This document shows, one piece after another, positions 8,461-62,412 of a DNA stretch of 64,000 nt. The stretch comes from Amoebidium appalachense (lineage: Eukaryota; Protista; Ichthyosporea), in the NCBI GenBank assembly GCA_963693365.1, contig CAVNZM010000003.1, positions 5,452,472-5,516,471 of the forward strand, given 5' to 3'. A model generated the notes under the pieces. The model was not told the DNA's origin. It did not search any database and saw only the letters and a list, made by a program, of their open reading frames with translations. Made by a program: the position numbers and the translations under genes. The number at the start of each line of letters is the position of its first letter. The stretch's first letter is position 1.

Positions 8461-8584
8461 TTGACGCTTGTCATGACATATGGATATCATGATGGTTATG
8501 ATAATAATGTTGCGTTGGAGTGTGCATGCTTTCTTTTCACATGTTTGGTGTGTGCATATCTTAACCAGGCTTTACCTTGTTACA

Positions 8585-25716: not shown

Positions 25717-25743
25717 GGGCCGGGGAACACCCCCATCCATGTC

Positions 25744-37350: not shown

Positions 37351-38898
37351 ATGATCCCACCGAAGACTCCATAACACCGCAGTCTTTACCTTATTGGGGG
37401 AATAATCAATGGTTTCGAGATATCTGCCAACCCGAATATTCTTTCAATTGAACGCGTGTGTATGCGCGCGCGCGCGTGTGTGTGTGTGTAGGGGGGGGGG
37501 GGGGGGGGGTCAAGTGCACGCTCATTCACGTGCATGATCTTTCATAGTAAGACCACAAACACAAACAAGAACCCTGGTAACGAATACAGAAGCATACACT
37601 CGTACAGAAGGGGAGAGAGCAAGGCATGTGTGTGTGTGTGTAGTAGGTGTGTGTCTTGGGTGAGTAAATGTGTGCACTGAGAGTGGGGGAGACAGATGCG
37701 CGCGCGCGCGTGTGTGTGTGTGTGTGTGTTTTGTGTGTGTGCATCAGCAATCTTGTCGAATCCATCCATAAGCCATCTAAGACGTCAGCATCTAATCAAA
37801 GTCATCTACATCCCACCCTTTAACCCTATCTACCCCATATCCCATCGAAAAGATGTCAGGATATTTTCGGACCATTTAAAGACGACTTTCAAGTTATCAT
37901 AAAGATGTCTGGACATTTCCTGACATCTTTATATACATTTTTCCTGACATCGTTTTCTACACCTAAACCTAACCACTACCCATCCGTAACCCCACCCAAT
38001 CCCCACCTTTTCTACCCCTAAAATATAGGTATTGTATGATCCTGCACATCAAGACCCTTTTATGTCATCTTTAAGGCCACTTTAAAGAGCTTAATTAAGA
38101 AATTAAGGCAACAAACAGACATCTAAACGATATCGTTAAAGGGACATCATGTACATTACCTTATTGCAACGAGAGGTGATTTAGAGGTCTTCATGTTGAC
38201 TTTTCAGCATCTAAAAGGGCACATAAGGAGAACTAAATGTTGCCTTTACAGTATCTCGGGGCATCGGAATCCTTATTTCACGATGCCTTTATGTCATCAA
38301 ACGGATCTGTTGCCGACCATACAAAGATACCTTTTGGATCACTCTACATGATCTTTATTTCATGCAGACCGATTCACGACATACACATGTCACCTTTATG
38401 TTTACTTTGTGACAACTTGTGCAGCATAATAAGTCGACAAAACGATCACTACAAGCAATTTAATATGATCATTATACTGTATTCTAATCGTCCAAAAATC
38501 TATATTAAAGCATCATTTTGTGGCCCGGTTGATGCCAAGATGATGTCAGTTCCCCCCCAGTTCCCCCCCCCCCCCCCCCTCCCTTTCCCTTTCCTCCCCG
38601 TGGCTGCACAGTGAAGTGTCGTTGACCGTGCTGAACAATCTTTAATTTCTTATGACACGTCCCACTGGGACGTGTCTCCACTCTTTACATCTACGGGATG
38701 TCCCACTGGGACACCCCTCTACTGTCTCAACTATTCAAAACATTAAAATTCAAGAAAAGAAACACTATAAATTTATGAGAAAAAAACAAACTAAACAAAG
38801 TAAACAAACTTGCAAAATAAAATCCAAAATAATCCCCTACAAAAAAGGGGCAGTACATTTCTTGGGGGGAAGGGGGAGGGGGGGGGGGAGGTGGGGGG

Positions 38899-40087
38899 CT
38901 AAGGGGTGAATTTGGGCTTTTTGTGGGGGCTGGCATGACCCTGTTGGCGCCTTCTCTTCATCGCCGACCTGGTAAGGGGGGTCTCTCCCTCAGCCTCGTT
39001 GAACTCAGCCGGAGAGTCCTCACCTTGAAACTCAGCCGCCTCCTCCTCCACCCCCTCCACCTGCTGCACGGCCTCGCTGTCACCCTCCGTGCCGCCCACA
39101 GCGACATCCTCGCCCTCCTTGCCGACCTTGGCCGCGTCCGTCTCGTTTTCACGTTGGTCCACCTTGGGGTCTGGCGCCACCTCCCCGGCCTCCCGCTCGG
39201 CTGTCACCATCTGGTCCTTCACGTAGTTGTCGTAGTTTGAGATGTACTGCAGGTAATGGCGGGCACAGAGTCAGATGCTTTACAGAAGTCAGTCTAGAAA
39301 ACTTTTTCCAACTATGTGATTGTGTTGTTTGTGTTTTTTTTTTTTTTACGGGGGGGGGGGGGGGGTTTGCAGATGTGAACAAAGAAGTCTTTTATAAAAC
39401 AGAACAGACTAAATGCTAACTAGCTCGAGTGTCGGCACGCTATAGTGTAGTAAGCCATAATCACACCATAAGGGGGGGGGGGGGGGGGGTAGGAATTATA
39501 AAGAACTTAGCGTAAGTCTCGTGAGCCATGATGAAACACCCCACAGCTCAAGTGTCAGCATCCTATTGCCTAACCAAAAGGGGAGGGGGGGGGGGGGGGG
39601 GGGGGACCCACCAACTTGATGTTGCCTTCGGCCGCAGCACCGTCATAGTTGGGGTCGTCACATTCGAATTTCACGGGGGTCCACTTGTTGATGAGCTTGT
39701 GTTGGTTGGGGTCTCGCAGCGACACCTCGAAGCAGTTGACGACCAGCCGGAAGAATGCCCTGTGGTCTCTGGCGATATCCTGCCCAGTGCTTCTTTAGTG
39801 ATCTGTTTTCAAAAGAGGTAAAGTTCGGAAGGAATACACATAAGGAAGAGAAGAGAAGAGACAGATAATGTTGTCGTCATATTGTCTTACTGACATCCAA
39901 TGGATGTCATTAGGATCATATGACGACAACATTATGGCCCTTCATGATGTAAGAATGTGACCGTAATTCTCTATGATGATGCTTAAAACTGTCTTTATTC
40001 TTGAAATATTCCAAGCATTTGCAGACCTAGGAATATGCATCAATTTTTTTTCGATTCGATTCGTGGAATGTTCATGGTGGAGGGGAG

Positions 40088-40122
<35 letters not shown>

Positions 40123-42619
40123 AGAAAGCGTTATGCAAGTAAATATATACGATGAAAGCAAGTTATTTGGGAAGTTAAACCGGTGATCAGAGGAGAACGT
40201 GGAAGGGTGAAAGGGAGTGTGTGTGTGTGTATGTGTGTGTACACACGTGTGTTGGTTGAAGAGCGAGTATGTGTGAGTGGGTGGTGGGCAGGAGGGAAGG
40301 GGGGGGGGGGGGGGGGGGGGGGTCCTTTGATGTAGTCTAGACTCAGAATGTGTTGAAAGTGATTTGTTGGGGACATTACATACCAAGGCAGTCTTGTTGC
40401 CAAGGACAAGCCGCACAGCCTTCAATGAGATGCTGCTGAACAGGCGGGAAAACGGCTGGTACCCGAACGGGTTGCCCGTTTCAGGGTCGACAGAGTACAC
40501 GCGGCCGCACGGCTGGCCATTCAGCTTGACCTCATCCAGGAGGGCCAGCCACAGCGCTGGTCGCTCATCGGCAGTTGGGGCGTAGGCGACCAGCTGTGAA
40601 TGTGTGTTTGAATGCAGCAAAAGAAAGGAAACAGAAGCGAGTGGTGGTGAAGCAGGTGGCGGTGGCGTTGTGGGGGGGGGGGGGAGGAGGGGGGGGGGGG
40701 GGGGGTTAGTTAGTCCATGATTGTGTATTACAGAAGACTGTCAATAAAATATTATATAAATACAATGAAAAGAAAGTATTATTACTACATTACTACTTGA
40801 AACAGCTACATATCTCCATCCCTGTACAAATGACGTTAATGGCATACAAGTAGATTAGAACAAAACAGCTACATATCTCCATCCCTGTACAAATGACGTT
40901 AATGGCATACAAGTAGATTAGAACAAAACAGCTACATATCTCCATCCCTGTACAAATGACGTTAATGGCATACAAGTAGATTAGAACAAAGTAACCTGTG
41001 TGCTAGGATGCGTGTGAGAAGAGTTAAGCCCATTGTCATAGAAGGAGTCCGTTGAGTACGGAGGCGGGGGACCGCGGGGGGGGGGGGGGGGGGGGGGGGG
41101 GGGAAATACATCGAGATTGGTCCCAGGTACAACGTACCCAGTCCTCAGGAAGTTGCGGACGTGCTGGTGGACATTGGACTTGATGGAGGTGATGCCCGTG
41201 CGGATTTTGGAGATATACTTCTGTGCGGGATCGCTACGCACACAGTTGCGGATGATGTGGACCCACTTGGCCACGGCCTCCTGATTCAGCTTCGCGCTTG
41301 ACGTCTCGACTTTCTGAAGAACCTCAACGAACTTTCCAGCCAGGTCCCCATCGTGGGCGTTGTTGATCTGGGGTGACTCCAGCACAAGGTGCTGGTAGAT
41401 GTTGTGGGTCTTGGAGGACTTTTCCACATAGTCATTCTGACGGTGATGGAAAATGTTAGAAAACAAGAATGACGATGTGAATAAATCTTGATGGAGCTAT
41501 AAATCCTCCATGCTGGAAACGTGCTGTAGCAGTTGCTTTGAAATGACCAAGTTTGAATAGTTCCTTCAGTTTATCCACTTAGACAGAATAAGGGTGTGGA
41601 TGTAGTAAGGATGGGTTTAGTGCGGGTAGGGGGGATGAATGCATTAGGATCGGAGGTGGCAGCATGAGGTGGTGGGATGGCAACAATTCCTCCACAAGGA
41701 TGAGCTTTGATCACAGAGATTGGTGGGGGGAGGGTTGTTTGAAACATAACTACTACAATAGGTAAGAGAAACAAAATCAAAACGAAACCAAGGGAGGGAT
41801 AGGTTGCCTACCAGGAACTGGGTGGTCTCCTGAAAGGATAATGTCTCGGGGTGTTTCTTGGAGGGGGAGGGGGTTGGGCGACGGGAAGGGGTGGTAGGGG
41901 TGCGGCCCAGCCCAGGCGCAGATGGAGACGGAGGCGGCTCTGGATCATCAAGCGCTGGCAGTCTCGCCTCCTTGCCCAGGAGGGCGCGCAACTGCTCCCT
42001 CATGGCGGCGCGACTGTAGGAGCGGATGAGCTTTCGCATCCTCTGGGAGGTGTAGGTTGGGTGCTTGCCCGACAACACCAGTGTGTAAAAAAGGACCTCG
42101 AGCTGATCCTCGCGGTTGTAGGGGCATTCATCCTCGTCGTTGAAGTTGTTCTCGTCATCTTCCTGGACTTCTGTGACTGAAGAATAGTAGGACTAATGTT
42201 AGTACAATTGTTGGAATCGTAGAAAACTAACAGAAGTGCGGAAACAGGGCAACCCTGGCAACAGATAGTATTTTCCGGCATGATCCAGATAACTATTGGA
42301 GGTCATCATATGACCCAAAACACCACCGAATCCCCCCCCTTTCCCAACCATTTCTACACCAAAAATGATCTATCGTATGGATATCCCCATCAACATATCG
42401 TGGGTGAAGGCGGAGGTTTCAAAAACACAAAAGAACTAGTTGACGTGGACAGGCGAGTGGGGGGAGCGAGTAAACCACACTAGCAGCAGGTGTGTTTAGA
42501 AAGAGTGGAGTGGGTGAAGGGAGAGTATATAAACGGAGGGGGAGGGGGGGGGGGGGGAGGGTTGAATGCAGTCAACAGAACAAAAGTACAAATACAACGG
42601 GGAGTGGGGGGGGGTGAGT

Positions 42620-42651
<32 letters not shown>

Positions 42652-44028
42652 TGACCAATAGCAACGGCTATGTTTTCCTGTGTAACTGACTGGAATCCCG
42701 CTATCATGTTCTCCACACTAGGCAAGAAGTGTTCCCGACACTCGCACGTGGGATACAGCGCAAGCTGGTCGATCCAGAGAAAAGTTGCGGTGTTCACTGC
42801 TAGCGCAATGTTCGGGCCAACCTGAAAGCCATAGTGAAGCGCTCCAGGTGTGGTTTGTACCAAGTCGCCGGCGCGCTGTACGACTATGACAGGTGCCAAC
42901 CCTATGGATGCAAGGTAACGCGGAGACCGAGGGATATAATTTTTGTGCTGAAGTGGGTTTCTGCACGAGCCTGGCAATTCGTTGCGGGCCAGCTGTAAGA
43001 GCCGTTTGTACTGGGAGGGAGGGTGGATAAACCACACCTTAATGCCCCACAAAAGAAGGCTTGCTGAGGCCAGCGCGGCATCTTCAATGTGTGCACCAAA
43101 CACTGTTAAACCCAAGACAGACAACTGCACGTACAACATGGCAACATTGATTCCTGGCATTGTTTCCCCGAAATGATTTCTTCCCAACGGCGTGAAGTCA
43201 CTGATTGCAGTTACATTGAAAACACGTTCGTCGAATATTTGATCACCATCCACCTCGACATCGGATGCATAGACACCACCAACACCTTCCAGGTTTTCCT
43301 CAAACAACTGCGCTATCTGCTCACTGCTCATTTCACCCAAACCACTAACATCTTGAGGCAACGTTTGACACTTGGAAAGGTCCACGCTGACAGGCTCCCG
43401 GCTTATCTCGCACCATGACTCGGACACGCGAGTTACTGTTTGCCTACACGCTTGCTCTTTTATCTCTTTGGTCGAAAACTGTTCCATCGCATCACGAAAA
43501 GGAACAGGAGGTGCAAACCCCTCTAATAAACAACAGCCCTCCCGTTTCTCTTCAGCACTGTGCAGGGCACGAAGTGCCTTTAAAGCCTTTTCCCTATTCA
43601 TGAAAGACGAAGCGCAATGTTGTTTTTATGTTTGAAGATTTTAAAAGTTTTTGATGTTACAGTGAGAAAGCCTAGGTGAAACTGACAACGAGCACACGCG
43701 TAACGACTATTTATGCAGCAGGGGGTGTAAAACACAAACACAACCCACCTTTCCTCTTCGGCTGCAGCATGGCGAGGGCGGCCGGGGCCGTAACTGAGGT
43801 GATGCCTTTGAGGAGAATACCGACTGACTGCCCAGTAGGGCTTTCAGCCTTGCTGGGATTCTCCCTGCCCCTACCCCCGGCCTTGCTATCCTTGCCGCCC
43901 TTGCCGCCCTTGCCGCCCTTGCTGGCGGCCACGGGCTCGCTGCAGTCCGAGTCGTCGAACGGCGTCTCAACCTTTTTGCGCTTGGGAAGCTTGGTCGTTG
44001 TGGCGCCCATTTTCGCGGTCTTTGGCAT
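38899..44028 (-). CDS. Multi-exon KDM4-like JmjC histone demethylase with C-terminal extension (exons ~44028-43749, 43671-42656, 42176-41812, 41436-41110, 40593-40385, ~40027-39891, 39803-39611, 39248-38899)
   Basis: VYASD, PGIN..MLY, FGAHIED (HxE), GIKVWFIHPP, CRNPLQHK, QRAGDLVQTTPGALHYGF..GPN...AVN, WID...CEC: KDM4-type Fe ligands and Zn site. GT-AG junctions; exons 2-5 join in phase, but exon1/2 and the distal exons need frameshifts. Confidence 0.85.
40795..40990. repeat. 63-bp tandem repeat x3 in a JmjC intron
   Basis: aaacagctacatatctccatccctgtacaaatgacgttaatggcatacaagtagattagaaca occurs three times. Confidence 0.95.
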
Positions 44029-45445
44029 GGTGGAGACGTGGAAGGCGTAAGCGCGAGACAGAGCGATGACGATATGTGGTCATATGGACCACAAAGATGT
44101 GTTATGTGGGGTTTCTGTTGCAGTTCCGGTTGGGAAATGGATTGCAATCGTATGCCCATGAAAACATTTTAATTGGTTGATCATCGCATAAGCTGAAGCC
44201 AATCAAACGCGTAACCCAATCACAGACGGCGAAAACATATGATATGTTTTCCCCCCACACCACCTGCAATTTGCTGAGGTTGGACCCTGGTCATCAAGAC
44301 TTCTTGGCCATAAAATGACAATACAATTACAGCAAAACATTCTGCAGAAACCCGATATTCTCACATTTAAAGTGTTTATAAAAAGCCTTAGTTTCAAGTA
44401 GAGGCATTTTTTTTCTTGCTTTGTGTCGACGACATCTTTTATCCGCTTGAAATTTGTCAGCACCCATAATTCTACTATTACAGTACGTTGTATGTGGGGA
44501 TCACCATCCGTCTTTCCTGTTTTAACTCGCGCTGAGGCAGAAGTTATAAGAAGCAGACGGGGAAAACTCAGCATAAGAGATCAATGAAATGAACATAAAT
44601 ATTAAATTACCAGACAATTTACAGTGCAAATTTTCTAGTAATTTCTACGTCCATTACGAAAGAAAATAACCAACTTTTGACTTGCACCTGTTTTCCCTGC
44701 CGCGCTCAGGTATGTGGGTCTATCGGAGGGAAGGTGTGGACCTGACATTGAGCTTATCGAGTCAGTGGCCGCAGGGAGAAGAGAATTAATATATATATTG
44801 GAATATTAATAGTTGAACTCTTCTGCATTTTTTATTGTTTTTTTGTATTTTTTACACTGTCCACATTTATTGACACTTATATAAGGACCGAACGATTAGG
44901 TAGGCTATGCCAGTGGATTCCCATGTTTACGAAGTGCGCGCGCTGCCTAGAGTGGCCACATGTATGCATGACAGATCACCAATGATATTTGCAACGCACG
45001 CAAACCAAACAACATCCAGGTCGTTGAAATCTCCACGGTTGTTCTAATAACACATTCAGCTTTATATTTACTTTTAAGTTTGTTATTTTTTATGTCAATG
45101 TATATATGGGCATGCGCACCTAGTAGCATAGTGTTGGACGAAGCAACGCAGCATGATAGAGTTTATGCCATAGCAGACCAATCGCCGCATTGGAACTATC
45201 CGAGTATGATAAATGTCCAATCACCACGATTAGGATTATTGGACATCTTCATGTTGTAGGAAACACCACCCGGGGGTCAACGCGGACTCCACGACATCAG
45301 GCAAGGGACATCATGATCAACACAACCCATCCACATCCCAGCTGGACGCACACGAGAGATCTATCTGTACTATAAAATATATATGTATATACACTGTTTT
45401 GATAAACTTTGTGTATGCACGTGATGTGCGGTAAAGCGCGTCAAA

Positions 45446-47122
45446 ATGCCGGGTCCTATACCATGCCCATTATGCCAAGATACGTTTCGAAACCGTGCCG
45501 GTATGGTTAGCCACCTTGTTCATAGGCATAGGTATACAAAAGCAGAAATCGATCGTGCGAACGAAGAGAGCGAGGACAGGCTGACACGTGGCCTGCGTGC
45601 GGCACGGTCCGAGAACCTGGCGCCTGAGTCAGAGAACGATCCTATGGACACTAGTGGAGAAGAAAACGAGGAGGATGCCAGGGAGCCGGACGAACCAGAG
45701 GGGGCGGCACATGGGGAGCTCGAGGACTCGGAAATGGAAGATCCCCACGCGCACCACAATCATATCCCATTCCCAGGCTGCACACACCACCTCACTTTCC
45801 TTAGGGACGGGGAGGAGTATCATGCCCTAAAGGAAAAACTGTTGAAGAGACAGCAGATGCAGCTTGTGGTGGAGGCCGGTAGCGATTCCAATTTAGGGAA
45901 ATTACGGGGGGTTCCTGAGGGGCAGAAGGCATACATTCAAAAAGTCAGTGCACTCACGGAGGAGCTACGGAAAGACCCATACTACCCGTTCGCGAGCAAA
46001 CCCGAGGTAAGCTGAACAAGGCGCTCCCCCCCCCCCCCCTCCAACCCCCCCCCCCCCCCGGATCCGAGCCCCCCCCCCCCCCCCTCACACACACACACAC
46101 ACACACACACCTCCATCCCCCCCCCCCCCCCCCCCCCCCCTGCCCCTCCCTACCGTGACTGTACCATGAAAACCCGCATATGAAACCCGCAAGGTATTAT
46201 GCGTGTGAACCACACTGAAAGCTAGAGCGATGCACCGTGACATGCACATTTTGACATCCATGTGCTCTCCCCTTGTTTACACTGTCTGTACATGTGCAGG
46301 CTGATTTGGCCGAGTTCTTCCACGAGAACAAGACCTCGAATGCAGCCGCTGACCGCCTCCTGGGGATCATGGGAGAGCACGCCAGTGACATCCCCAACCC
46401 TCTTCCCAAGAAGGTCAAGCACATTCATGACAAGATAGACAATCTACTCCCCGGCCTGGTAAGCTGTTTTACATTTGCATGCCAACCGCGCGCACGGTCG
46501 TGGGTAGATCGGGTAGATCTTGATCCGCTCAGGCTATACTATAAAAGTAATGTTTAAGCTGTCTAGCCATTCGTCGATCTACTAGATCAGATCCATTTAG
46601 GTATGTCATTGGCGAATCTATACAATTATCTAACCTCCACATTCCAATTAGATCCACGCAGGAACTTCAACGCCTAAAACTTTGTGCCTGCGTACGATCT
46701 TCCCGGTTTCTGCACATGCCTAATTTAAAAATCGAACCTAACACAATATGCACACAGGAATTCTCGCGCTTGAGCGTGGATCTTGACATGCACGGTGTGA
46801 AACCCCTCGACGTCATGTATAGGGACATTGGAGACTGCATCCAACGCGTGCTCCTTCATCCCTCTCTAGGCCGCGAGGGCGGCATCACCTACAAAACGGA
46901 ATTCCCAGTGGACGGGCTTGGGCGCCGGGTGTACAAGGACAACATGGATGGAGACTGGGCATTGAGGGAAGAATTGCAAATACCGGTCGGGGGCACTCTT
47001 ATGTCTCTGATCATATACTCAGATCAGACACAACTGACGCAGTTTGCCGGCAAAAAGGCGTATCCGGTGTACGTGTCGTTGGGGAACATCAACAAGGACG
47101 TGAGGTCTGGCGATTGGTGCAG
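45446..47122 (+). CDS. Plavaka transposase, 5' exons (45446-46005, 46300-46458, 46758-47122)
   Basis: N-terminal C2H2 (CPLC...HLVHRH); YYPFASKPE|ADLAEFF; RRVYKDNMDGDW; LIIYSDQTQLTQFAGKKAYPVYVSLGNINKDVR, the Plavaka hallmark. Splice phases are consistent. Confidence 0.88.
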
Positions 47123-47358
47123 GTATGTTAAGCAACTCAGATCCCCAACGTTGTACTGGCGTGTTACTATGCATGCACCGTGCATGTACTATAAATGAAG
47201 CAATAACATCCCCATGTATACCTCCGGGATGGAGATACTCATGATCACGCGTGCGCATGCATAGCGCGCAGCTGTGACCGGGGGGAGAGGGGAAGGGGGG
47301 GGGGGGGGGGGGGGGGGGGAGCGGCGGAGAGGGGACAGGGGGGCCCCCACGGGGGGGG

Positions 47359-47430
<72 letters not shown>

Positions 47431-47479
47431 CCCCCCCCCAGAGGGGGGGGGGGAGGGAAGGGGGGCGAACGGACATGGT

Positions 47480-50064
47480 CATCAGCAAACTTCATCCGGC
47501 ATCCGAAACCCATCTTATATATCATTTTGATATATGGCATACCAAACCCCACCCTAAATACGTCAAAAAGAGCCTGACAAGATATCATAGAATTCCCGGA
47601 TAGAACCCATCAGATCCCTATCAATGATATCTTTGATAGGGTTCGGATTGGTTATGGTATGGCGCATATCCGAAACCCATCCTTTGCTGATATCCTTACG
47701 ATATCCTTACGATATCATAGAAAACCACGATGGTTTTGGTTTTTGACCGAAAATCTCAAAATTTCCTCATAGCATTATGATATCCATATGCTATCCTAGT
47801 GATATGTATGTTAGCAAGGTCATAATAGCTCTTTTGGATATGTTTCACATACGTTTAGGATATTGGTGCCCCAAACGATATCTGTTAGATGTCTTTGTTA
47901 TAGCCTACAGATATCCCTCATTATAGAATATCTTAATCCCATCCAATACGCATTACATGACGATATCTACCTGATGTCGTGGGACAATACAAATTGATAT
48001 CCACGTGATATCTGATGGATAACATGTATGCTTATAAATTGAATATAATACAGATGTTGTTTTGATATCGTCTGGACATCGTTGTGATGTACCTACAACC
48101 ATTTTTTTGATATCGTTATGCGCCCATGGGGGTAATCCAGAAGATACCCTTGTACACAACCAGTAGGCATGTTGAAGACATCCTTTTGATATCCTTTCGG
48201 ATATCCCTTTGTCCACAGGCCCAAGATATGATATCTAATTCATATCATTGTACAGGTCGTAAGGATATGTACCAAATATATCTAAATAAAGACTTGTGAT
48301 ATATGTGATTGGTATGTGTAAGATGCCCCTATGTACATCAATGTGATATGCTGTAACTTATCATTTGAATATCCCGCTCTGTCTAAAACGGCAGCATTGT
48401 GGGTATCCTTTTGATATTCTTTTTGATATCCCTTTTATATTCAATATGTTATCTGTTTTTGGTCCTACATCTCAAACATATCACAACTGCCTCTTTGCAG
48501 GCCCAAGCTACGATATCTAATTCATATCTTTGTACACGTCGTAAGGATATGTACCTGATATATCTAAATAAAGACTAGTGAGTTGTGTGATTGATATCGG
48601 TAAGATGTCGCTATGTACATCAATGTGATATGCTGTAACCTATCATTTGAATATCCTAATCTGTCCAGAGCAGTAGTCCACGAGGTATCATCTACATATC
48701 TTTTAGAGGCCCTTAGATTATCATTGCGATATCCGCATAGGGATATATTTATATATCGAATTCATAAGTATATGATACATAAGCTTGCCATCCCAGTGAT
48801 ATCTAAGCGGCAGTATTGTGGATATTAGAAAGATATCAGAAGAACATCCGTGCAGTAGAAGGTCAGTGTCTTTTGTAAGTACATCAATGTGATATCTAAA
48901 CGGCAGCATTGTGGATATTAGAAAGATATCAGAAGAACAATCGAAAAATCCTTTAGATGTCTATTAGATGTCCGATGAGAATGGTTGCGATATACGCGCA
49001 AAGAAAATTTTTGTGATCAAGCCAGCTGAGCAATCGTTGGGAAACCCGCCAATTACTCACACGGGGCATTGCGGGGCTCATTGCGGCCATCTGAATGTGA
49101 TGGTGGCATGGCCATTTATATAGGGCCAGGAAATCACTTTTCCGTTCGATTGTGGGACGAAAATCACAAAATGGCAAACCCGATTTTGATTGGTTGTTAT
49201 TCTTCAAAACGGCATGCTCAGGGTCACCCAACTGTGATCAGCCAATCACGTTTCATGTTTAATTGAGATTATCGCATACATCTAATGAAGATATGTTTCT
49301 GCCATCTTTACGACATCGCAACGACCTGATCTTCTATGGTCTGATCTTGTACATATCCCACAGGGGTCATAAACATCTCATAATGATATTTGTTAGATAA
49401 ACACGCAACCACAACGGCCGCAAATAAAACTAAATTACCCCATTTGGCAAGTGCCATGTGGCAGAGTGTAAATTGCGAACGTCCGAAACACTAAACACTA
49501 GGCAAAATAGAGCAATCTAGTAACTACATAGTACCAATTTCGAGCATCGAAGCAGGAAAATGGTTATTTATTGCAATTTTATATTTTGTGTGTTCCGAGG
49601 ATGTTACCACCTTTGAAGGTTTATTAGCGCCTGAAAACAATACCTTACTGCATTAGGGCGGGTGCACATCACAGGCACGTGCACATTCTCCGGACACCAG
49701 ATGATATATCGCAAGATATCCGTACGATATCTAATGTATGTATTGTTGATATCATTCTATTCTCATGCATCGTAGTTATAATGAACGTTACCATTTTATG
49801 ACTATTTATGATATAAAACGCTAGTTACGCTTGTGCTTTCTATAACCGGTAACGCACGTTAACATTATGCCTCCGCGCGCGTGAACTACAAAGTATGTGA
49901 AAACTGCAACGTAGTGATACACACTCTTCTTCTGAACCTATGTCGTCAATCATGACACACACACACACACACACACACAGCGAGACACGCACGCTGCCAC
50001 ACACACACACACAAACACACACACACAGAGAGAGATACACACACACAGACAGACACGTTGCCCT

Positions 50065-50095
<31 letters not shown>

Positions 50096-50128
50096 GCCAC
50101 ACACACACACACACACACAGGCACGTTG

Positions 50129-50212
<84 letters not shown>

Positions 50213-50236
50213 ACACACACGTTACCATGCGCACCT

Positions 50237-50295
<59 letters not shown>

Positions 50296-50362
50296 ACACG
50301 TACATACACACACCCAAACACATGCCCGTGTGCACGTACATCGGTAGACACGAACGCGCGAG

Positions 50363-50394
<32 letters not shown>

Positions 50395-53036
50395 GTGTTC
50401 ACATAAAGACAGGGTACACCACGGTTGCCTCGATATTCCTCTGTTCTTTATCTACACATTCTCGGCTCACTCTCCCGTTCATAAAATATCTCCTCCCTTG
50501 TAGCACCTTGTAGCATAGTATATGTACATATGTTACCTAGACATTATTGGTTTTTCAATAACTACCCACAGAACAGCCTCTAGCACGAGAAATTTACCAC
50601 AACGTTTATGGGGGGATGGTAAATGTGCCCCTGGAGTACGAGGGTCACACGAAAAAAACACAACCTTGTAGCTCGAATAGAACCCCCCTTGTAGCATAGT
50701 ATAAGTACATGTGTTACCTAGACATTATTCGTTTTTTCAATAACTACCCACAGAACAGCTTCTAGCACGAGAGCTTTACCACAAAGTTTATGGGGGGGAT
50801 GGTGAATGTGCCCCTGGAGTACGAGGGTCACACGAAAAAAACACAACGTTGTAGCTCGTATAGAACCCCCCTTGTAGCATAGTATATGTACATAGTATGT
50901 TACCTAGACATTATTGGTTTTTTCAATAACTACCCACAGAACAGCTTCTAGCACGAGACATTTACCACAAAGTTTATGGGGGAGATGGTGAATGTGCCCC
51001 TGGAGTACGAGGGTCACACGAAAAAAACACAATGTTGTAGCTCGAATAGACCCCCCTTGTAGCATAGTATATGTCCATGTGTTACCTAGACATTATTGGT
51101 TGTTTCAATAACTACCCACAGAACAGCTTCTAGCACGAGACATTTACCACAACGTGTATGGGGGGGATGTTGAATGTGCCCCTGGAGTACAAGGGTCACA
51201 CGAAAAAAACACAACGTTGTAGCTCGTATAGAACCCCCCTTGTAGCATAGTATATGTACATAGTATGTTACCTAGACATTATTGGTTTTTTCAATAACTA
51301 CCCACAGAACAGCTTCTAGCACGAGAGCTTTACCACAACGTTTATGGGGGGGATGGTGAATGTGCCCCTGGAGTACGAGGGTCACACGAAGAAAACACAA
51401 CGTTGTAGCTCGTATAGAACCCCCCTTGTAGCATAGTATATGTACATATGTTACCTAGACATTATTGGTTTTTCAATAGCTACCCACAGAACAGCCTCTA
51501 GCACGAGAGATTTACCACAAAGTTTATGGGGTGGATGGTGAATGTGCCCCTGGAGTACGAGGGTCACACGAAAAAAACACAACATTGTAGCTCGAATAGA
51601 ACCCCCCTTGTAGCATAGTATAAGTACATGTGTTACCTAGACATTATTCGTTTTTTCAATAACTACCCACAGAACAGCTTCTAGCACGAGAGCTTTACCA
51701 CAACGTGTATGGGGGGGATGGTGAATGTGCCCCTGGAGTACGAGGGTCACACGAAAAAAGCACAACGTTGTAGCTCGTATAGAACCCCCCTTGTAGCATA
51801 GTATATGTACATAGTATGTTACCTAGACATTATTGGTTTTTTCAATAACTACCCACAGAACAGCTTCTAGCACGAGAGCTTTACCACAACGTTTATGGGG
51901 GGGATGGTGAATGTGCCCCTGGAGTACGAGGGTCACACGAAAAAAACACAACGTTGTAGCTCGTATAGAACCCCCCTTGTAGCATAGTATATGTACATAT
52001 ATATGTTACCTAGACATTATTGGTTTTTCAATAACTACCCACAGAACAGCCTCTAGGACGAGAGATTTACCACAACGTTTATGGGGTGGATGGTGAATGT
52101 GCCCCTGGAGTACGAGGGTCACACGAAAAAAACACAACATTGTAGCTCGAATAGAACCCCCCTTGTAGCATAGCATATGTACATGTGTTACCTAGACATT
52201 ATTCGTTTTTTCAATAACTACCCACAGAACAGCTTCTAGCACGAGAACTTTACCACAAAGTTTATGGGGGGGATGGTGAATGTGCCCCTGGAGTACGAGG
52301 GTCACACGAAAAAAACACAACGTTGTAGCTCGTATAGAACCCCCTTTGTAGCATAGTATATGTACATCATACGGTATGTTACCTAGACATTATTGGTTTT
52401 TTCAATAACTACCCACATGCGGCATGTGTTACTTTCACGTTATTGGTTTCCTAGCACGGGATATTCAGCACACAGTTGGGGATGTGGGGGCAGTGTACAC
52501 CTCAATATTGGTAAGGTGGTGGGTGGGTTGGGGGGGGGGGGGGGGGGGGGGGGGGAGGGGGGGGGGGGTTCCACACAACCGAAACTGTCGGTGTTACAAG
52601 TGGTTCGGTCTTAAGAAGTTAGAACGGTGATTTTTTAATTAATAGCGGGAAACAATATTATCCCCATTGCATATGGGGGGAACGAGGAGGGGGGAGGGGG
52701 GGGGGGGGGGGGGTTCACAACGAATTCTATCGACTGTGCATAATTAATGTATATTGCACATGTAGCCTGAAAGATTAAAGTGAATGTGTGTATGTATATG
52801 TGCGAGTATATTTGTGTATGCAATACATGTACAATGTTTTCGTCTTTGTAGGTGGGTGGGTGGGGTGGGTGGGGGGGGGGGGGGGGGGGGGTGCGCGGGG
52901 GGGAAGAGGGAGGGGGGAGGGGGCATCATGATCAGGGATAACAGGGTGTGTGCGTGTGTGCGCTTGTGTGTGCATGTGCTGTGTGTGTTGTGTAGGTGTG
53001 CGCCTGTGTGTGTGTGCGTGCCTGTGTGTGCGCGCC

Positions 53037-53068
<32 letters not shown>

Positions 53069-53102
53069 GTGCATGTGTGAGTGTGTGTGCGTGCGCGCGC
53101 GC

Positions 53103-53133
<31 letters not shown>

Positions 53134-53993
53134 TGTGTGATTTCAAAGAAGTCGAAAGCGCCAGTGACACCCATGTTGAAAAAAAGACAAGCAAGCACGC
53201 TAAGAAGGACAGCAAGAAGTAACAGAAACCCTTTCATGCCGAAAAAATGGTCAAGAACAAAGAAGTGGAGGACACGTAACTATAGTCTGATAGTTGTGAC
53301 TAAGGGCACTAAGGGTAGCGCTAAGGGCACCAAGCTGATGCACGCGCGCGCGCGAGCCGAAATCTATTTTTATCTTTTTCCTAATCAGGCGCGGCGAATA
53401 GTGATTGGCTAAATCCCAATCCGGTTTGCAATTTTTTTCTCCATTTAAGCCTGTACGCACGTTGTTTTCTCCATTTCTCTTCCCCCTTCCCGCAGGTCCG
53501 CAGGTCCTTTCCCGCAGGTCGCCTGGTCGCAGGTCCCTTCCCGCAGGTCGCCTGGTCGCAGTTCCCTTCCCGCAGCGCCTGGTCACAGATCCCCTCCGCA
53601 GATCGCGCAGCCACCGTGCTGATTGTTTTGGACCATGCTGCATGCTGCAGCTTCTTCTTGAAGGTTAGTTTTGTGTTGCCTGCTTTTGTGCATATGGCGT
53701 TTGTCTGTCTGGTCTGTGTCTGTGTCTGTGTGTGTGTGTGTGTATGTGTGTGTGCGTGCGTGCGTGTGCGTGTGTCTGCTGGCTGCAGATGCACGTTGCC
53801 TTTCACGTTCATGAACCAGCGACTGTGGGCACTACTTTTGCTGTTAGCACTATAGCTATCATCCCCTCCACCGATCGTTCAAGCTATTTTCTGCTTCTCT
53901 AGACTTCATAAGTTCTGGTCCGGGTTTCCGTCCTTACTATGTTTAAGGTTGGTTCTGTCGACTCTTTTTTTGCCACTCTCAGTCAGCCCCCTC

Positions 53994-54030
<37 letters not shown>

Positions 54031-55062
54031 CCCCACTTCTCGCAAGTAGGATGAGCTAATTCTTAGCTCGAGTTCCTTTACAGGTTTTGGCAAGGTTGGC
54101 CCATGAAGTCATCAGCAGCTATAAGGCTACGTTATCATCTAGAGGTGGGTACCGGCTCTTTGTCCTATGGCTGCTGTTGTTTCCGTTTTTCGTTTCATAG
54201 GTGGGTACCGGCTCTTTGTCCTGTTAAGGTAAATAAAGTATGGAGGCAAGACCCTGTGGGTCTGGTTCTTTGTCCTATGGCTGCTGTTGTTTCCGTGTTT
54301 CGTTTCTGTGTTGCTCTTATAGCACATGAATGATCATGTGCATGTTTAGCACCCATAGGTGGGTACCGGCTCTTTGTCCTGTTAATTACTCTGCCGGCAT
54401 TTGGTATGGTATGGTTTGGTGTAAGAGTGCCCCCCTTATATTGTCATGTTGGGCGTCCTTTTTTTTTTTTTTTGGGCCTCATACCCATACACACACACCT
54501 TGTTACTCTTCTGTCAAGGGATTAGCATGTGTTTAGTTTAATGATGTTGGGAGCTTCTTAGAAACCCGCATAATAGTTTGCTTGTTTTGAGTTTTGTTTA
54601 TGTTCGTTGCTGCTCTTTTATACTCCTTCCCCCCCCCCCCCCCACACACACACACACACAAAAGAGTGACTTTTCTTTTTTTTTCTTTTTTTCTTTTTTT
54701 TTGTGTGTGTGTGTGCGAAGAGAAAAAGTAACAGAGCTTTTTATTATTTTTATTATTATTATTATTATTTTGTGTGTGTCTGTGTATTTATTTTGTGTGT
54801 TTTCGTAGTTCGAATAAATTGTGTGAAGACATGTCCCGAGGACATGGACATGTCTTTAAAAATATTTGTCTTAGAAAATATTTGTCTTAGAAAATATTTG
54901 AAGTGACAGACACGCCCCAGTGGGACATAACCCTACGTAAAAGATAATAGATGAGTTATAGTTGACACGTTCCAGTGGGACGTGTCTGCAGAAAATGGAT
55001 CTGTAATCAGCGGCTCGACGACATATGACCACGTGACAGGCAGGTTCGAAAGGGGTGAGGGG

Positions 55063-55111
<49 letters not shown>

Positions 55112-56136
55112 AAACGACATCAAACAGTGATCGGAAACGACGTCTGGATGATATCAACTTTGAAAATGGCTCAATCATATATATCAAGACATAACATAAT
55201 GATATGAAAAGGATAATATAACTATATTGCGAAAATCATTCTTAATAAATCTTAATTATACCTTAAATTTATCGTTTTGATATATGTGCTGTATGTCAAA
55301 AAGATGTGACAGAGTTATGTTAACGATATGCTACTAATATCATAAGGAATGGTTAGCTGATAAACTACTATATGTTTTAACGATATGTAACAGATACTAG
55401 AAAGATGTCGTGTAGAGGACATACAGCCAGAACTTCTCATATCTTTAAAGGCTCCTAAAACTATCAAAACGATATTATTACGAAATTTCTTTTGACCCAT
55501 CCTAGTTATCTTTATGTTATGAGGCTTATATCGTTATGACATTTAACGTATGATCTTTAGATAATGTTTTCGGCATCCTATACCTATCCGTTGTATATGA
55601 AAAGGACATCTGTAATAGTATCTTATAGATGTATTACCATATACGAAACCTCCTATAATGACCTCGAAATGATATCATATAGATATATATGTATCTTATG
55701 ATCGATTATCATATATATCGTAAGGATATGTGATAGCTACCATAAGGATATGGGGAAGGGCTCCTAATCCGCTATTAGAGATATCTTTATTATGTCTAAA
55801 ACGCTTCTGAACATCAGACTAAAAAGATTTTATGATATCAAATAGACTATCATAATGGTATCATACGGATATAACGAGGTTGTTGAATACATGGAACACA
55901 GGATAGAACAACGATGGGTTCAGGGTGCTCCGTATGAGCCCATTATGAGATCATTTTGATATCTAGCAAAAGATACCAAAATGATATCCAGAAAACCCGT
56001 GATAGCAAAACGATGCTGTTATGTTATCTAAAAGACAAGAGGGGGATAAAGAGTGGCAAAAAGATGGGTTTATGGGTTTATGATATCTTTAATGGGTTTT
56101 TAATGGGTTTCGGATGCCGGATGAAGTTTGCTGATG
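47480..56136. mobile_element. Non-autonomous TIR element of the same CATCAGCAA family, 8,657 bp, 34-bp TIR, 2-bp TSD GT
   Basis: catcagcaaacttcatccggcatccgaaacccat at 47480-47513 with its perfect reverse complement at 56103-56136; GT at 47478-79 and 56137-38; GATATC-rich subterminal regions; no credible ORF. Confidence 0.9.
50506..52417 (+). repeat. ~183-bp tandem array (10 full copies + partial)
   Basis: Unit ccttgtagcatagtatatgtac...gttacctagacattattgg...gaatgtgcccctggagtacgagggtcacacgaaaaaaacacaac...agaacccc starts at ~50506, 50687, 50870 ... 52343. Confidence 0.95.
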
Positions 56137-56138
56137 GT

Positions 56139-56687
56139 GGGGCCTGTCAGGCCGCCGACGCGGAGGCCAAGGATCTTATCCGGGAGTTTGATCGCCAATT
56201 CAACGACATCCCACGTTTTCACGGACTCAGACACTTCACCGGATCGGTGTCTGACTTGACCTTCCTCCGTGCCAACGAGTACAGAGACATCATGAAGGTA
56301 CAGAGACTAAGCCCCCCCCCCCCCCCCCCCCCCCCCCCCATGTTTCATATCCCCCCCCCCCCCTCCGCCTGCCACCCCCCCCCCCCTCCCCCCCCCCCAA
56401 AACCCTAACCCCCTTGAAGCCAAGCAAGGGTTATAAAGCAGAACCCTAATCACATTCCACCTTAACGCAGGTCATGCCTTTCGTGGTCCGTGACCTACTT
56501 CCAGACGCTTCGGCAAACATCAAAGCCGAGAAGGTTTTCGTTGGTTGGAATGAATGGTACATGGCCGTCACCAAGAAGGAATATACGGATGATGCACTCG
56601 AGAAGATAACCGAGTTGTACAAGAGGTATGGTTATGAGTTCGTTAATACATTTTATTTTGTAATTTTCTTTTTTTCCCTTTTTTTTT

Positions 56688-56718
<31 letters not shown>

Positions 56719-57191
56719 GGGTAAGGTTATCAGTAACACGAGCATTACAGGTTTGCACAGGATACATACAACTGCTTTTATATTTTCGGGATACCGTTAC
56801 TTATTGTCCCCTTTTCTTTTTTTGTTGGGGTGGTGGGGGGGGGAAGGGGGGGAGGGGGGAGGAGGATGGTTATCTAACACGCGTGTTTAAGGTTTGCCCA
56901 GGATGCATACGACTGCTTCAAGGACTCCTCCAAGAATGGCCTACGCACTTCCAAGTTTCATTTCGGTGGCCATTACGCAGACAACTACCGTCTCTTCGGC
57001 CCTGTTGAGACAGCTGAGAGCTGGGAGCGCGCACACAAGTACTACTGCAAAATACCGTATCGCTCGACAAACAAGAACTCCACATTCATGCTGCAGGTCA
57101 GTGGATATATAGGTGTCCGTGCCCGTGTCTTGTGTGTGTGCATATGTGACGGTGTGTACGGTCTGTTGTGTGTGTATGTGTGTGTATGTTA

Positions 57192-57269
<78 letters not shown>

Positions 57270-57301
57270 CAGTGTGTGTGTGAAACAAGGGTGGTGGTGG
57301 T

Positions 57302-57336
<35 letters not shown>

Positions 57337-59835
57337 TTGGTAACGACCTTTTTTGGTCAGGTGGCAAAAAAGGTTCGACGTTGGGACGGCATGGACCTGC
57401 GTAGGGCAACTCTTCAAGGCCTGGAAGAGGAGAAGTTGATTGCAGCTGGGCTCCAGCCACAGGTTGAGGATGTGCTTCCCGACCTGACTGAAGAGGAACT
57501 GGCAGATGAGGAGGGCTCAGAGGACATTCCCGTTGTTTTGGAGCCAGAGATACCGGGAGATGCAGCAGCCGTGCTGGAGCAGGCGGATGCCACAGACACC
57601 GTCCTAATGTCAGGTATGCGGCCCCCTCCCCCCCCCCCCCCCCCCCAAAAAAAAAAAAAAAACAAAAAACAACATTCCCACCCGAGGGAGTGTTTTTGGG
57701 AGTGTTTTTCCTATACATGCCCTCATGTAGCTTAAAACCCCATCAAGACCCCCCTGCGTGTGGGCCAAGTTACAGGGCAGCAGCCAAAATACCAAAAAAA
57801 AACCCCCCTACATTTACACCCGTAAATGGTATTTTTTCTACATGTGCAACATCAACCACTCAGGGCACCACCAGATAATGAATAAAACGTGTTCCACGTT
57901 CAAGTAGCAGTTGAAACTTGGTATAAAGTAGAATATGGGTGCTAGGAACGTGTGCACCGAGTTTTAGCCGTGCACCACAAACCCCCACTAAGCCCCCCCC
58001 ACTTTCCCCACCCGGCGGGTGCGTTTTTCCCATATGTGCCTTCATATGGCTAGGTGCACTTTTGTTGCCACCCACGAACCAATGGCCTGGGAGCATCCAT
58101 GTTTTGGGAATAGCAGCATATAGGTACTAGGGAGGTGTGGGCCAAGTTACAGGGCTGCAGCCAAAATACCAAAAAAAAACCCCTACATTTACACCCGTAA
58201 ATGGTATTTTTTCTACATGTGCAACATCAACCACTGAGGGCACCACCAGATAATGAATACAACGTGTTCCACGTGCAAGTAGCAGTTGAAACTTGGTTTA
58301 AAGTAGAATATGGGTGCTAGGAACGTGTGCACCGAGTTTTAGCCGTGCACCACAAACCCCCACCAAGCCCCCCCACTTTCCCCACCCGGCGGGTGCGTTT
58401 TTCCCATATGTGCCTTCATATGGCTAGGTGCACTTTTGTTGCCACCCACGAACCAATGGCCTGGGAGCATCCATGTTTTGGGAATAGCAGCACATAGGTA
58501 CTAAGCAGGTGTGGGCCAAGTTACAGGGCTGCAGCCAAAATACCAAAAAAAACCCCCCTACATTTACACCCGTAAATGGTATTTTTTCTACATGTGCAAC
58601 ATCAACCACTCAGAGCACCACCAGATAATGAACAAAACGTGTTCCACGTGCAAGTAGCAGTTGAAACTTGGTTTAAAGTAGAATATGGGTGCTAGGAACG
58701 TGTGCACCGAGTTTTAGCCGTGCACCACAAACCCCCACCAAGCCCCCCCACTTTCCCCACCCGGCGGGTGCGTTTTTCCCATATGTGCCTTCATATGGCT
58801 AGGTGCACTTTTGTTGCCACCCACGAACCAATGGCCTGGGAGCATCCATGTTTTGGGAATAGCAGCATATAGGTACTAGGGAGGTGTGGGCCAAGGTCCA
58901 GGGCTACAGCCCTAAAGCCCCCTAAACCCCGCCCATATGGTTACATACATCGTTTTATTCTCATTTTTTAAATGTAGCAAAACTGACATTACGATGTCAG
59001 TTTTGGTTGTGTAATTGTGGGTGTGTGTATGTATTATGTGTGTTTGTGTGTGTGTGGTGTAGGGGGGGAGAAGGGGAAGGGGGACGTCGTGGCAAATTCC
59101 TAAGGTCTAGGGGGACACCAGCACCATATATAGTAAACGTAGCGAGTAATTGGTTTTTGAGGTTGTGTCTACCCTGCAGGTATAAAGATCAAGAGCCACC
59201 CGGGCCTCGATAAGACCGGTCTGCTGTGGTCTACCCTGGACAAGTTCTTTGTTCCCCCTGGCCAGGAGTTTGTGCCAAGCCCCTTCCTGGGCTCGGACCG
59301 CAGCAAGTGCCTCAAGTATCTGCCATTACAGACGCAGCTGCACCTGGCCTCCGTGTCCGAAGCACAGGCCCGCAACGTTGACCGTCATACACTGCCTGTT
59401 CCACTGGGCTGCAAGGTGAAGGTGTACAACAGCTGCTACATCAGGCTGGGAGTGCCGGATGAGAGGGTGTGGCATAGAGTGGTGGCGTGTGACCAGTTCT
59501 ACGGGCGGCGTGACCGGTACGACGACATCGTGATCCAGGGTCAGGACGGAGTTTGGTACGCACGGACGGTGCTCCTATTTACGTGCGAGACGGAGGAATG
59601 CGCTGAGGATGGCCAACCGGGGGCGTCGGAAAAGGTCTTTGTACGGTACTACACCGAGGTGGAGGTGGATCCCCTCACAGGGTGCAAGAAACTCCAAGTG
59701 GAAATGACAGGGACGGGTGCCCGGAGGAGGCCCAGATACGACGTCATCGACGTGGAATCCATACTGGGGACTTTCCACTGTATCCCCATGTATGCACAAG
59801 ACGGGGTGCAGAAGAAGTTCCTGGTTAACCGACAG
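56139..59835 (+). CDS. Plavaka transposase, 3' exons (~56139-56297, 56471-56625, 56892-57096, 57361-57613, 59180-~59835+)
   Basis: EFDRQFNDIPRFHGLRHF...EYRDIMK|VMPFV; KFHFGGHYADNYRLFG...WERAHKYYCKIPYRSTN; C-terminal RYDDIVI...WYARTVLLF...VFVRYY...YDVIDVESI. Canonical splice sites. Confidence 0.85.
57758..58915 (+). repeat. ~375-bp tandem repeat x3 in a transposase intron
   Basis: gtgtgggccaag unit starts at 57758, 58135, 58509 and (partial) 58884. Confidence 0.95.
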
Positions 59836-60855
59836 AGATCTGTAATACCACATCATCAACACCATAGGTCCACATGTAGATGCCTTCAAGTGCACGGAAT
59901 CGATCGAGCCAGGGTCAAAAAGATGTCACAAACCCATCCCAGAAACCTCATGATGACCATCCGAAAGGCATCTAAAAGACCACGTAAAGGCCATATAAGA
60001 TGCAAATATGGTTTTCCCTCATGACAACTAAATGTTCCTAAAAGGTTCATTAACAGACCACTTAAAGACGTCAAAAAGATGCTGTATACCAGGAATAGCG
60101 TCCAGCAACATTAAAGCAACCATATATGCCTATCATGTGCACCACCCAATCCACATACCATCTATGACGTCGTGGATGAGGTCCATCTACAAGAGCACAT
60201 AAAGACACTTTGTCGATCATTAAAAGTGCATATGCTGTGCATATAACAGCGAAAAAAACAATATGGATCGTATAAAATGCACTAAAACTAGTCTTGGACA
60301 TCATAGGGGACTTAGGGGGTAGAAATGGATGGGAAGAAAATATGATCATATAAAGTGGTCCATATAATGTCTATGTGCACCGGAAATAAACTAGAAGTAC
60401 ACTTGGACGTCCTGGAGTACTTAGGGTGTACTTTGGGATGGGTACAAGAAAAGAGCATTTAATGTGGTCTTTAGATGGTCCATATCACCACCCAAACCCC
60501 ACCAAATTGTGTTTGGAAAATTTTGAACATCGGGGCATTTAATATGCATTTAGGATGGGTTGTAGATCATTTCATGACACCATAGTAGATGCCTTGCGGT
60601 GCTGTTCTGGATGATGGATGATATCAAGTCCCCTTTATCCCCACCTGGACATCATAGATGAGTTATGGATAGTGGCCATCCAAATTGTTTACGACCCCCA
60701 CATCCCATCTAGATGTCATCATGTAGGTAGGTTGTGGTGGATGTGTGGGGTGGATATGGTGGGAGGACCCCCAAAAGGTGTCCTGGATGGGATCCGGATC
60801 GCCGAACAAGATTGCTGATGTGTGTGTGTGTGTGTGTGTGTGTTTGTGTGTGTGT

Positions 60856-60905
<50 letters not shown>

Positions 60906-60934
60906 GTATGTATGTGTGCATATGGGGGGGGGGG

Positions 60935-61685: not shown

Positions 61686-62372
61686 TCCCCACTCAAGGGT
61701 TGGAAGTTGGGTTCTCGTGAAGTTTGTTGATGTGACTGTTGATGTCAATACTCTCACACATGTAGAAGCAGGTGCCGTGAAGTCACAGTCAAGTTTCCCC
61801 ACTCGAGAAGACAATGGAGAAGACTTGAAGGGGCAAGCCAGGGAAGAAAACCAAAACGGAAGAAGCACACAACGACGGTTGCCTCTGAAGACTCGGAACA
61901 TGACGGTAGCCAACGACGATATATAAATATATATAGAAGAAAACAACTAGTGTATGTGTGACGTGTTGGTGGCTAATGATTTATACTGGGGACCACCCAG
62001 ATAAACACAAGGCATGAACATCTTGTGGACTGATTTATATACTGGTGGTCAACCAGTTAAGACACGGGGAATGAGCATCCCGAGGACTAGGTTTAGACTG
62101 GCAGTCAACCAGCACGCATTGGCTATAGATAATTATTTATACTGGGACGCCATCCCAGTTCGACAGATATATAAGTCGAATATAAAAGAAAACCAATATA
62201 TATGATGGTATATAAATAAACGACGGATGGTGGAGAAAGAAGTCCCCACTGAAGATGCACACACTGAAGATCGATGAAGACAGCAGTAGACTTTCGTTGG
62301 GAGGTGTCTCTACACGGTGAGGTGTAGACCACTGGCCAGGGCCCCAACCTACTTGAAGACCACTGTAGATGA

Positions 62373-62411
<39 letters not shown>

Positions 62412-62412
62412 C

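Follow-up and report, generated by a model that had tools for sequence, protein, structure and literature searches.

Can a DNA transposon carry its own eraser of the histone mark that keeps transposons silent? The question is raised by a 64,000-nucleotide stretch of the Amoebidium appalachense genome (contig CAVNZM010000003.1, positions 5,452,472 to 5,516,471 of the forward strand; herein referred to as the window), in which a pair of terminal inverted repeats (TIRs) encloses a Plavaka transposase gene and an open reading frame (ORF) with a JmjC domain that resembles the KDM4 histone demethylases. KDM4/JMJD2 enzymes remove H3K9me3 and H3K36me3, and H3K9me3 is a main transposon-silencing mark. 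We find that the enclosing element is a PlavakaB-type DNA transposon, present here as a defective copy, that holds an intact KDM4-like ORF as cargo; the cargo status and the KDM4 likeness, both proposed in a preliminary description of the locus, are upheld by the element ends, the ranking among solved structures, the predicted fold and the key residues. The element has two delimited ends and two genes, one of which is spliced at four observed exon joints, one of them skipping the JmjC frame; its transposase lacks its core, and a second element is nested within it. By analogy with known chromatin-directed cargoes, an anti-silencing role of the JmjC protein is plausible.

The outer element occupies positions 37742-60820 (23,079 bases, or ~14.4 kb without the nested element). 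Its TIRs, described beforehand and found as described, are 15 bp long (37742..37756, plus strand, beginning with CATCA, and 60806..60820, minus strand), are perfectly inverted-complementary and are the only two exact matches to this sequence in the window. The terminal motif CATCA..TGATG is that given for PlavakaB elements, for which duplications of 2-3 bp are described (PMC12730594, accessible text). TG does stand on both sides of the element (37740-37741 and 60821-60822), as expected for the 2-bp target site duplication claimed in the preliminary description; because each TG lies inside a (TG)n tract, however, such a duplication is indistinguishable from background and the flanks are no proof of it. 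Past position 9500, the window also holds three other isolated inverted pairs of 15-16 bp, and a 15-bp match alone is therefore not decisive. The outer ends are credible because the CATCA..TGATG motif is joined by an enclosed Plavaka transposase and by subterminal motif enrichment: the left subterminal kilobase (37742..38741) holds 11 copies each of CATCT and ACATC and the right terminal kilobase 12 each of CATCT and CATCC, against a background for CATC-type motifs of ~2 per kb in 9001-35000, an approximately fivefold enrichment at both ends. The surrounding (TG)n microsatellite extends over 37685-37741 and 60821-60918, the nested element has GT flanks, and GT/TG targets are possibly preferred by both elements.

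The transposase gene lies on the plus strand. A profile search, one of the checks proposed in the preliminary description, matched the Pfam family Plavaka (PF18759, E 9e-21; covering no more than profile positions 41-148 of 325) on this strand and Pfam JmjC on the minus strand (E 4e-14). Transposase exons 1-3 (45446-46006, 46300-46458, 46758-47122) encode 361 amino acids without stops, including a C2H2-like start and the first catalytic Asp region, and five 3' exons with predicted splice sites (56151-56297, 56471-56625, 56892-57096, 57361-57613, 59180-60024) encode 534 amino acids without stops; a 375-bp x 3.1 array (57758-58911) lies within the last intron, and Pfam finds no domain in the last exon. 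Direct joining of the two parts is out of frame. Both halves align to P0156, a fungal (mushroom) Plavaka protein and the sole Plavaka relative retrieved for this comparison (E 8e-15 and 4e-6), such that its residues 735-795 and 990-1030 are matched in the window and residues 796-989 have no counterpart. The missing core of ~190 amino acids includes elements that define the Plavaka transposase core, namely, the second Asp region, the C(2)C motif and the His motif (PMC12730594, accessible text), and a scan of 47124-56152 for these motifs in all six frames was negative. The spliced Plavaka transposase of the preliminary description is thus confirmed in family and strand but lacks its core; with ~190 amino acids absent, this copy of the outer element is defective and therefore without self-transposition, and it would move only with transposase from another copy. 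The core may be missing through deletion beside the nested element, which sits at the gap in the transposase, or through assembly collapse between G runs.

Contigs of two sequencing runs bear on this gene. In run X7, a contig covers exon 3 in an alignment that ends exactly at the predicted donor, 47122, and continues with 317 other letters, as expected for a spliced transposase transcript of some copy; in run X2, two bins over exons 2-3 (46266-46947) are uncovered with no contig spanning them, and from this we conclude nothing. The transposase and the cargo gene on the opposite strand do start head to head at the short distance first reported, the ATGs at 45446 (plus) and 44028 (minus) leaving 1,417 nucleotides between them (44029..45445), a candidate bidirectional promoter.

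The preliminary description recognized two genes within the outer element and missed the nested PlavakaB-type element (47480..56136), which accounts for 8,657 of the 23,079 bases. Its perfect 34-bp TIRs (47480-47513 and 56103-56136), detected by self-comparison, start CATCAGCAA, like the outer ends, and GT stands on both flanks, which are non-repetitive. It contains a 186-bp tandem array (50506-52417) and no gene recognizable by Pfam, six-frame motif scan or alignment to relatives. A contig of run X12 joins one of its ends to another flank, and the nested element is likely mobile in trans. The two elements share a 13-bp palindrome (GTCCCASTGGGAC), which occurs as a pair ~1 kb from one end in each of them (38659..38712, downstream of the cargo gene, and, by motif search, 54914-54981 in the nested element), giving four matches in the window where 0.15 are expected; these palindromes are candidate binding sites for the transposase or the cargo protein.

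The KDM4-like JmjC ORF (42656..43601, minus strand) begins with its own ATG and extends over 315 codons, as far as a predicted phase-1 donor. It keeps the Fe triad (H171, E173, H256), the Cys-His-Cys-Cys Zn site (C213, H219, C286, C288), the equivalents of the 2-oxoglutarate (2OG)-binding residues Tyr132 and Lys206 and the substrate-orienting residues Y157, K220 and N270, equivalent to Tyr177, Lys241 and Asn290, whereas the third 2OG-binding position, Asn198, is replaced by Ser; the residue assignments made beforehand (Fe ligands, 2OG Tyr/Lys, Zn site and Ser at the Asn position) were all correct. For the Zn-site residues and the Glu169 and Tyr175 equivalents, the KDM4A numbering is one that we assume. 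The roles and numbers of Tyr132, Asn198, Lys206, His188, Glu190, Tyr177, Lys241, Ser288 and Asn290 follow the accessible text of PMC8162366, according to which Asn198 contributes to 2OG binding in KDM4A. Against P0010, a named KDM4D-like protein, 18 of 21 key positions are equal, and Ser stands at the Asn198 position in 16 of the 153 aligned domains that keep the triad.

Comparisons with solved structures place the ORF closest to KDM4. A search of solved-structure sequences returned 55 matches, of which the first 36 rows belong to the KDM4 group (KDM4C/D/B/A, E 5e-18 to 2e-15), followed by Rph1 (4e-10), JMJ14 (2e-9) and KDM5 (2e-8 or weaker). The model built from a 101-row alignment has a mean predicted local distance difference test score (pLDDT) of 75, with a core mostly at 85-98 and poor residues 1-79, and matches KDM4A/B/D (E ~1e-15, 28-31% identity), with KDM4 entries only among the 40 matches listed; against a viral fold library, the matches were confined to distant JmjC/cupin proteins, the best being the LbFV JmjC protein at 15% identity. 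A single-sequence fold of the ORF (pLDDT 32) was useless and was set aside. Pfam recognizes JmjC only and no JmjN, PHD or Tudor domain, and the protein is therefore KDM4-like rather than a canonical KDM4 ortholog.

The nearest relative found, P0002 (Logan), shares 39% identity (E 6e-35) and carries the same Ser and Met, the latter at the Tyr175 position, as the JmjC ORF; a word-index search with the ORF scored 0 of 4114 candidates. In a 153-row tree made by a quick method (without P0005, P0156 and one short domain, and with no chosen KDM5 outgroup), the ORF pairs with P0002 (Shimodaira-Hasegawa-like approximate likelihood ratio test 90) among long branches, its own end branch measuring 1.04 changes per column, a placement that is uninformative on donor or direction. 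That 18 of 21 key positions are kept although the nearest relative stands at 39% implies that the catalytic site has probably been under long purifying selection. Other KDM4-like proteins that are divergent and JmjC-only were found in whitefly, thrips and other assemblies (P0001, P0004, P0006, P0009); some of them have zinc fingers at the C-terminus, several have Ser at the Asn198 position, and they may be mobile-element or viral cargo.

The spliced JmjC gene of the preliminary description is not borne out in that form: the domain sits in a single ORF (43601-42656), within intron 1 of a six-exon gene on the minus strand that encodes 565 amino acids without stops. The structure of this cargo gene combines prediction with spliced contigs of runs X7, X10 and X11, three samples that are labelled 'DNA?' and yet contain GT-AG joints. 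Exon 1 (43749..44028) comprises 93 Lys/Gly-rich codons and ends in a phase-1 donor; its Lys-Gly-Gly repeats call to mind the histone H4 tail, presumably a resemblance of low complexity. In the spliced contigs, exon 1 is joined, with the JmjC ORF skipped, to the exon at 41812..42176, which is followed by exons at 41110..41436 (acceptor in X7, X10 and X11, with a probable in-frame donor at 41110), 40384..40593 (both ends at X7 spliced joints) and 39612..39779 (acceptor used at an X7 spliced joint) and by a last coding exon (38899..39246, splice sites predicted) with an acidic tail and a basic end resembling a nuclear localization signal. The observed joints are 39778/40383, 40593/41138, 41436/41812 and 42176/43749, the last of which is also matched by a loose end in X10. 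X7 also uses an out-of-frame donor, 41138, for the 41436 exon; a frameshift at this exon end was considered and rejected, as contigs reach 41110, where a donor restores the frame. Single-exon searches gave the 565-amino acid protein no recognizable domain: Pfam found nothing in four of the exons, a word-index search with one exon scored 0 of 59 candidates, an Atlas search with two exons gave no usable match and exon 1 did not resemble the N-terminal part of P0002.

The end phase of exon 1, phase 1, is also that of the JmjC ORF, so that either can be spliced to the next exon in frame; were the predicted phase-1 donor at 42656 used, the product would be a JmjC fusion of 787 amino acids that reads on through the five downstream exons. 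Contigs of X7, X10 and X11 cover the JmjC ORF while the neighboring intron 41437-41811 is spliced out, with depths of 358-505 over the ORF, 4,000-11,000 at the main joints, 83-107 in the intron below the ORF and none in intron 41437-41811; contig depth is unfit for ranking parts of one gene, and the depth over the ORF is only a hint of minor RNA. Spliced cargo contigs and the contig ending at donor 47122 do occur in the same run, in partial agreement with the co-expression of transposase and JmjC gene first suggested, but the spliced form omits the JmjC frame. X10 and X11 contigs also leave the intron below the JmjC ORF at 42471 for other sequence (at least 255 letters in X11), which we read as a further copy that carries an insertion or differs in its upstream part.

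The stretch is present in 20 of 24 listed sequencing runs, 12 of which contain at least half of its words. Depths in X2 are 345 for the left-end contig and 635-700 for the JmjC contigs, compared with 16 for a contig over the window's flank; instead of that flank, the left-end contig has 431 letters of a different one. In X3, JmjC variants occur at intermediate share (2457/4420 and 2128/3719) and long loose ends lie inside the element (41877, 43754, 44417). These data suggest a young multi-copy family in which the JmjC ORF travels with the left end, judged from contig depth, which is no copy number. The JmjC ORF has neither stop nor indel in any of the seven runs examined, which bear three different organism codes; the four differences listed (two synonymous, two replacements off key sites) are too few for an estimate of dN/dS. 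Scans for related loci returned 0 loci in viral contigs and none in metagenomes. Candidates from TIR-pattern scans were rejected as chance matches: 64 viral loci had at most 24 end bases matched, and 6 metagenomic loci had no BLAST match to the window.

We hypothesize that the locus represents a PlavakaB-type family in which JmjC is a minor alternative-first-exon isoform that removes H3K9/H3K36 methyl marks and aids escape from silencing, a reading to which we give an even chance. Such a family would make an abundant, JmjC-less accessory protein of 565 amino acids and a minor JmjC fusion of 787 amino acids, for which the JmjC ORF would start at its own ATG and be spliced in phase onto the five downstream exons. 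The enzyme may be tethered to the element by the shared C-terminal part, the palindromes, also present in the nested element, being possible attachment sites, and the fusion would demethylate H3K9/H3K36 on the element, being active despite Ser at the Asn198 position. The most complete form of this hypothesis is a self-targeted demethylase made through alternative first exons, the abundant JmjC-less protein and the rarer JmjC fusion having in common a C-terminal domain with affinity for the palindromes and H3K9me3 being stripped from the family; such transposons, not viruses, could then also be the carriers of the intron-bearing KDM4-like genes of endogenized giant viruses. We put it forward tentatively and think it unlikely in its entirety.

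Several observations weigh against an alternative JmjC isoform with demethylase activity. The spliced contigs all come from one study, the sole joint across intron 1 (42176/43749; X7 and X11) skips the JmjC ORF, and no joint into or out of that ORF is listed even at 1% share, in a listing that masked 42602-42659, where the predicted JmjC donor lies, and left out one joint. Contigs over the JmjC ORF extend without splicing as far as exon 1, the frame of which meets a stop at 43711, and could be pre-mRNA. The 565-amino acid protein, which includes the proposed tether, has no domain recognizable in the single-exon searches. The codon use of the ORF is distinct, with G/C at 163 of 315 third positions (GC3 0.52) against 433 of 565 (0.77) in the six other exons (p 1e-13), a difference that suggests separate acquisition of the JmjC ORF. 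The three key positions that differ from P0010 are Asn198 (Ser), Tyr175 (Met) and Glu169 (Pro).

Some of these points would be accommodated if the JmjC ORF were a useless passenger, recently captured into the intron from a host paralog or an endogenized giant virus and normally spliced out, its active site conserved by selection that preceded the capture. The observed joint skips the ORF, the ORF departs in codon use from the gene in which it lies, and divergent JmjC-only KDM4-like genes are known in one protist both in endogenized giant viruses and as host paralogs (PMC11244446, accessible text). Against this reading, the ORF lies flush with an in-phase donor, has its own ATG, is uninterrupted in all seven runs with their three organism codes and is covered by contigs of the spliced runs, and no viral gene was recognized nearby. 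We regard capture without function as possible but doubtful.

Alternatively, the JmjC protein may be useful to the element without being an H3K9/K36 demethylase, whether it reads methyl-lysine or competes for it without catalysis, or hydroxylates another substrate. Ser at Asn198, Met at Tyr175, the long end branch of 1.04 changes per column and the lack of a PHD or Tudor domain are all consistent with a change of activity, and the fission yeast JmjC protein Epe1 is described, in the sources available, as a non-catalytic anti-silencer. The Fe triad and the equivalents of Tyr132, Lys206, Tyr177, Lys241 and Asn290 are nevertheless all kept, and Ser at Asn198 recurs in 16 of 153 aligned relatives with the triad. 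We consider such a role improbable, more so than capture without function. That the TIR pair is fortuitous or derived from unrelated fragments, the minus-strand gene being an ordinary host gene beside a broken transposase, would fit the other 15-bp inverted pairs in the window and the uninformative TG duplication, but is very hard to reconcile with ends that suit the enclosed transposase family, motif enrichment at both of them, a different flank joined to the left end in X2, high depth from that end through the JmjC ORF and a nested element with the same type of ends and palindromes.

The demethylase isoform that we favor belongs to a locus surrounded by other mobile DNA. Among 39 window ORFs and exons scanned, no viral gene was recognized near the JmjC ORF, and we found no giant-virus insertion around the element; its neighbors are Copia, Gypsy-like and long interspersed nuclear element (LINE) remnants. 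Copia reverse transcriptase/RNase H remnants at 253-1707 (plus) and 62349-63076 (minus) are in opposite orientation and 69% alike. A Gypsy-like element (9503-11325, plus) encodes an integrase core (rve) followed by a chromodomain ORF, and an apparently intact LINE (25717-30115, plus) has a 403-amino acid ORF followed by a reverse transcriptase ORF of 1078 amino acids. Inverted arms of 330 bp (14374-14698 and 18162-18487) adjoin two short ORFs (14263-14769, plus; 18728-19177, minus) that we take to resemble AP2 DNA-binding domains, with no Pfam hit at 0.01. A near-perfect palindrome of 450 bp (32614-33064) adjoins an ORF (31011-31820, minus) that presumably begins with a pogo/Tc1-type DNA-binding region, with no Pfam hit.

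Few systems indeed are known in which counter-silencing encoded by a transposon has been demonstrated, and those Plavaka cargoes that are published either act on DNA or add marks. With a KDM4-like eraser between transposon ends, the arms race would come to include the removal of the histone mark that is most closely linked to transposon silencing, and this in a compact system; the nesting of the JmjC frame in an intron from which it is usually skipped suggests how an element could limit a genome-destabilizing enzyme. A Plavaka-borne KDM4-like gene also offers an alternative explanation for the intron-bearing KDM4-like genes found in endogenized giant viruses.

We found no KDM4-like gene within a delimited transposon in the literature searched, most subscription papers and bioRxiv supplements being outside its reach. 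Relative to human KDM4A-D (JMJD2), the JmjC ORF appears to share the fold, the Fe triad, the Zn site and most 2OG and methyl-lysine pocket residues, including Ala at the Ser288 position as in the KDM4D entries, and it differs in its ~29% identity, in the replacement of Asn198 by Ser and of Tyr175 by Met and in having no Pfam JmjN, PHD or Tudor domain. The VANDAL elements of Arabidopsis, which are Mutator-type, encode VANC, whose DNA hypomethylation has been experimentally demonstrated. As described in the sources available, VANDAL/VANC and the window element, likened here by description only, have in common an accessory protein, encoded by the transposon, for which action on its own family via short internal motifs is proposed, and they differ in transposon type and in that VANC causes DNA hypomethylation.

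Both halves of the present combination are already published, namely, Plavaka elements with chromatin cargo (TET, SET/methylase) and KDM4-like genes in endogenized giant viruses, as far as the accessible parts of these reports extend. Endogenized giant viruses of Amoebidium carry intron-bearing KDM4-like JmjC genes (Sarre et al. 2024; PMC11244446) that, in the accessible text, resemble the ORF described here in being divergent, JmjC-only, located in mobile DNA and proposed to counter H3K9me3, and that are likewise multi-exon; they are assigned to giant-virus insertions or host paralogs, not to the interior of transposon TIRs. Plavaka-flanked giant repeats with tyrosine recombinases are also described in Amoebidium in the same text (PMC11244446). 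In the red alga Bostrychia, giant Plavaka elements with PAG1-3 (bioRxiv 10.1101/2025.02.11.637652) are, from their main text, alike in size (17-19 kb), in having an accessory gene of unknown function and chromatin-modifying cargo and in inverted repeats proposed to bind a cargo protein; their cargo is instead a DNA methylase-SET protein and a ParB-2OG oxygenase, no intron-nested cargo is described, and the words 'demethylase' and 'Jumonji' have 0 occurrences in that main text. The closest parallel is offered by the fungal PlavakaB families with TET/JBP cargo (Kojima 2025; PMC12730594), whose main text and searched supplement contain 'JmjC' 0 times. From those parts, these families share with the window element the CATCA..TGATG termini, the Plavaka transposase, the ~20-kb scale and a 2OG dioxygenase cargo for which an anti-silencing role is proposed, and their 2-bp flanking duplication has a possible counterpart in the TG flanks; they are consensus elements with complete transposases, whereas the window copy is defective, and their cargo is directed at DNA, whereas the KDM4-like JmjC protein described here would be directed at histones.

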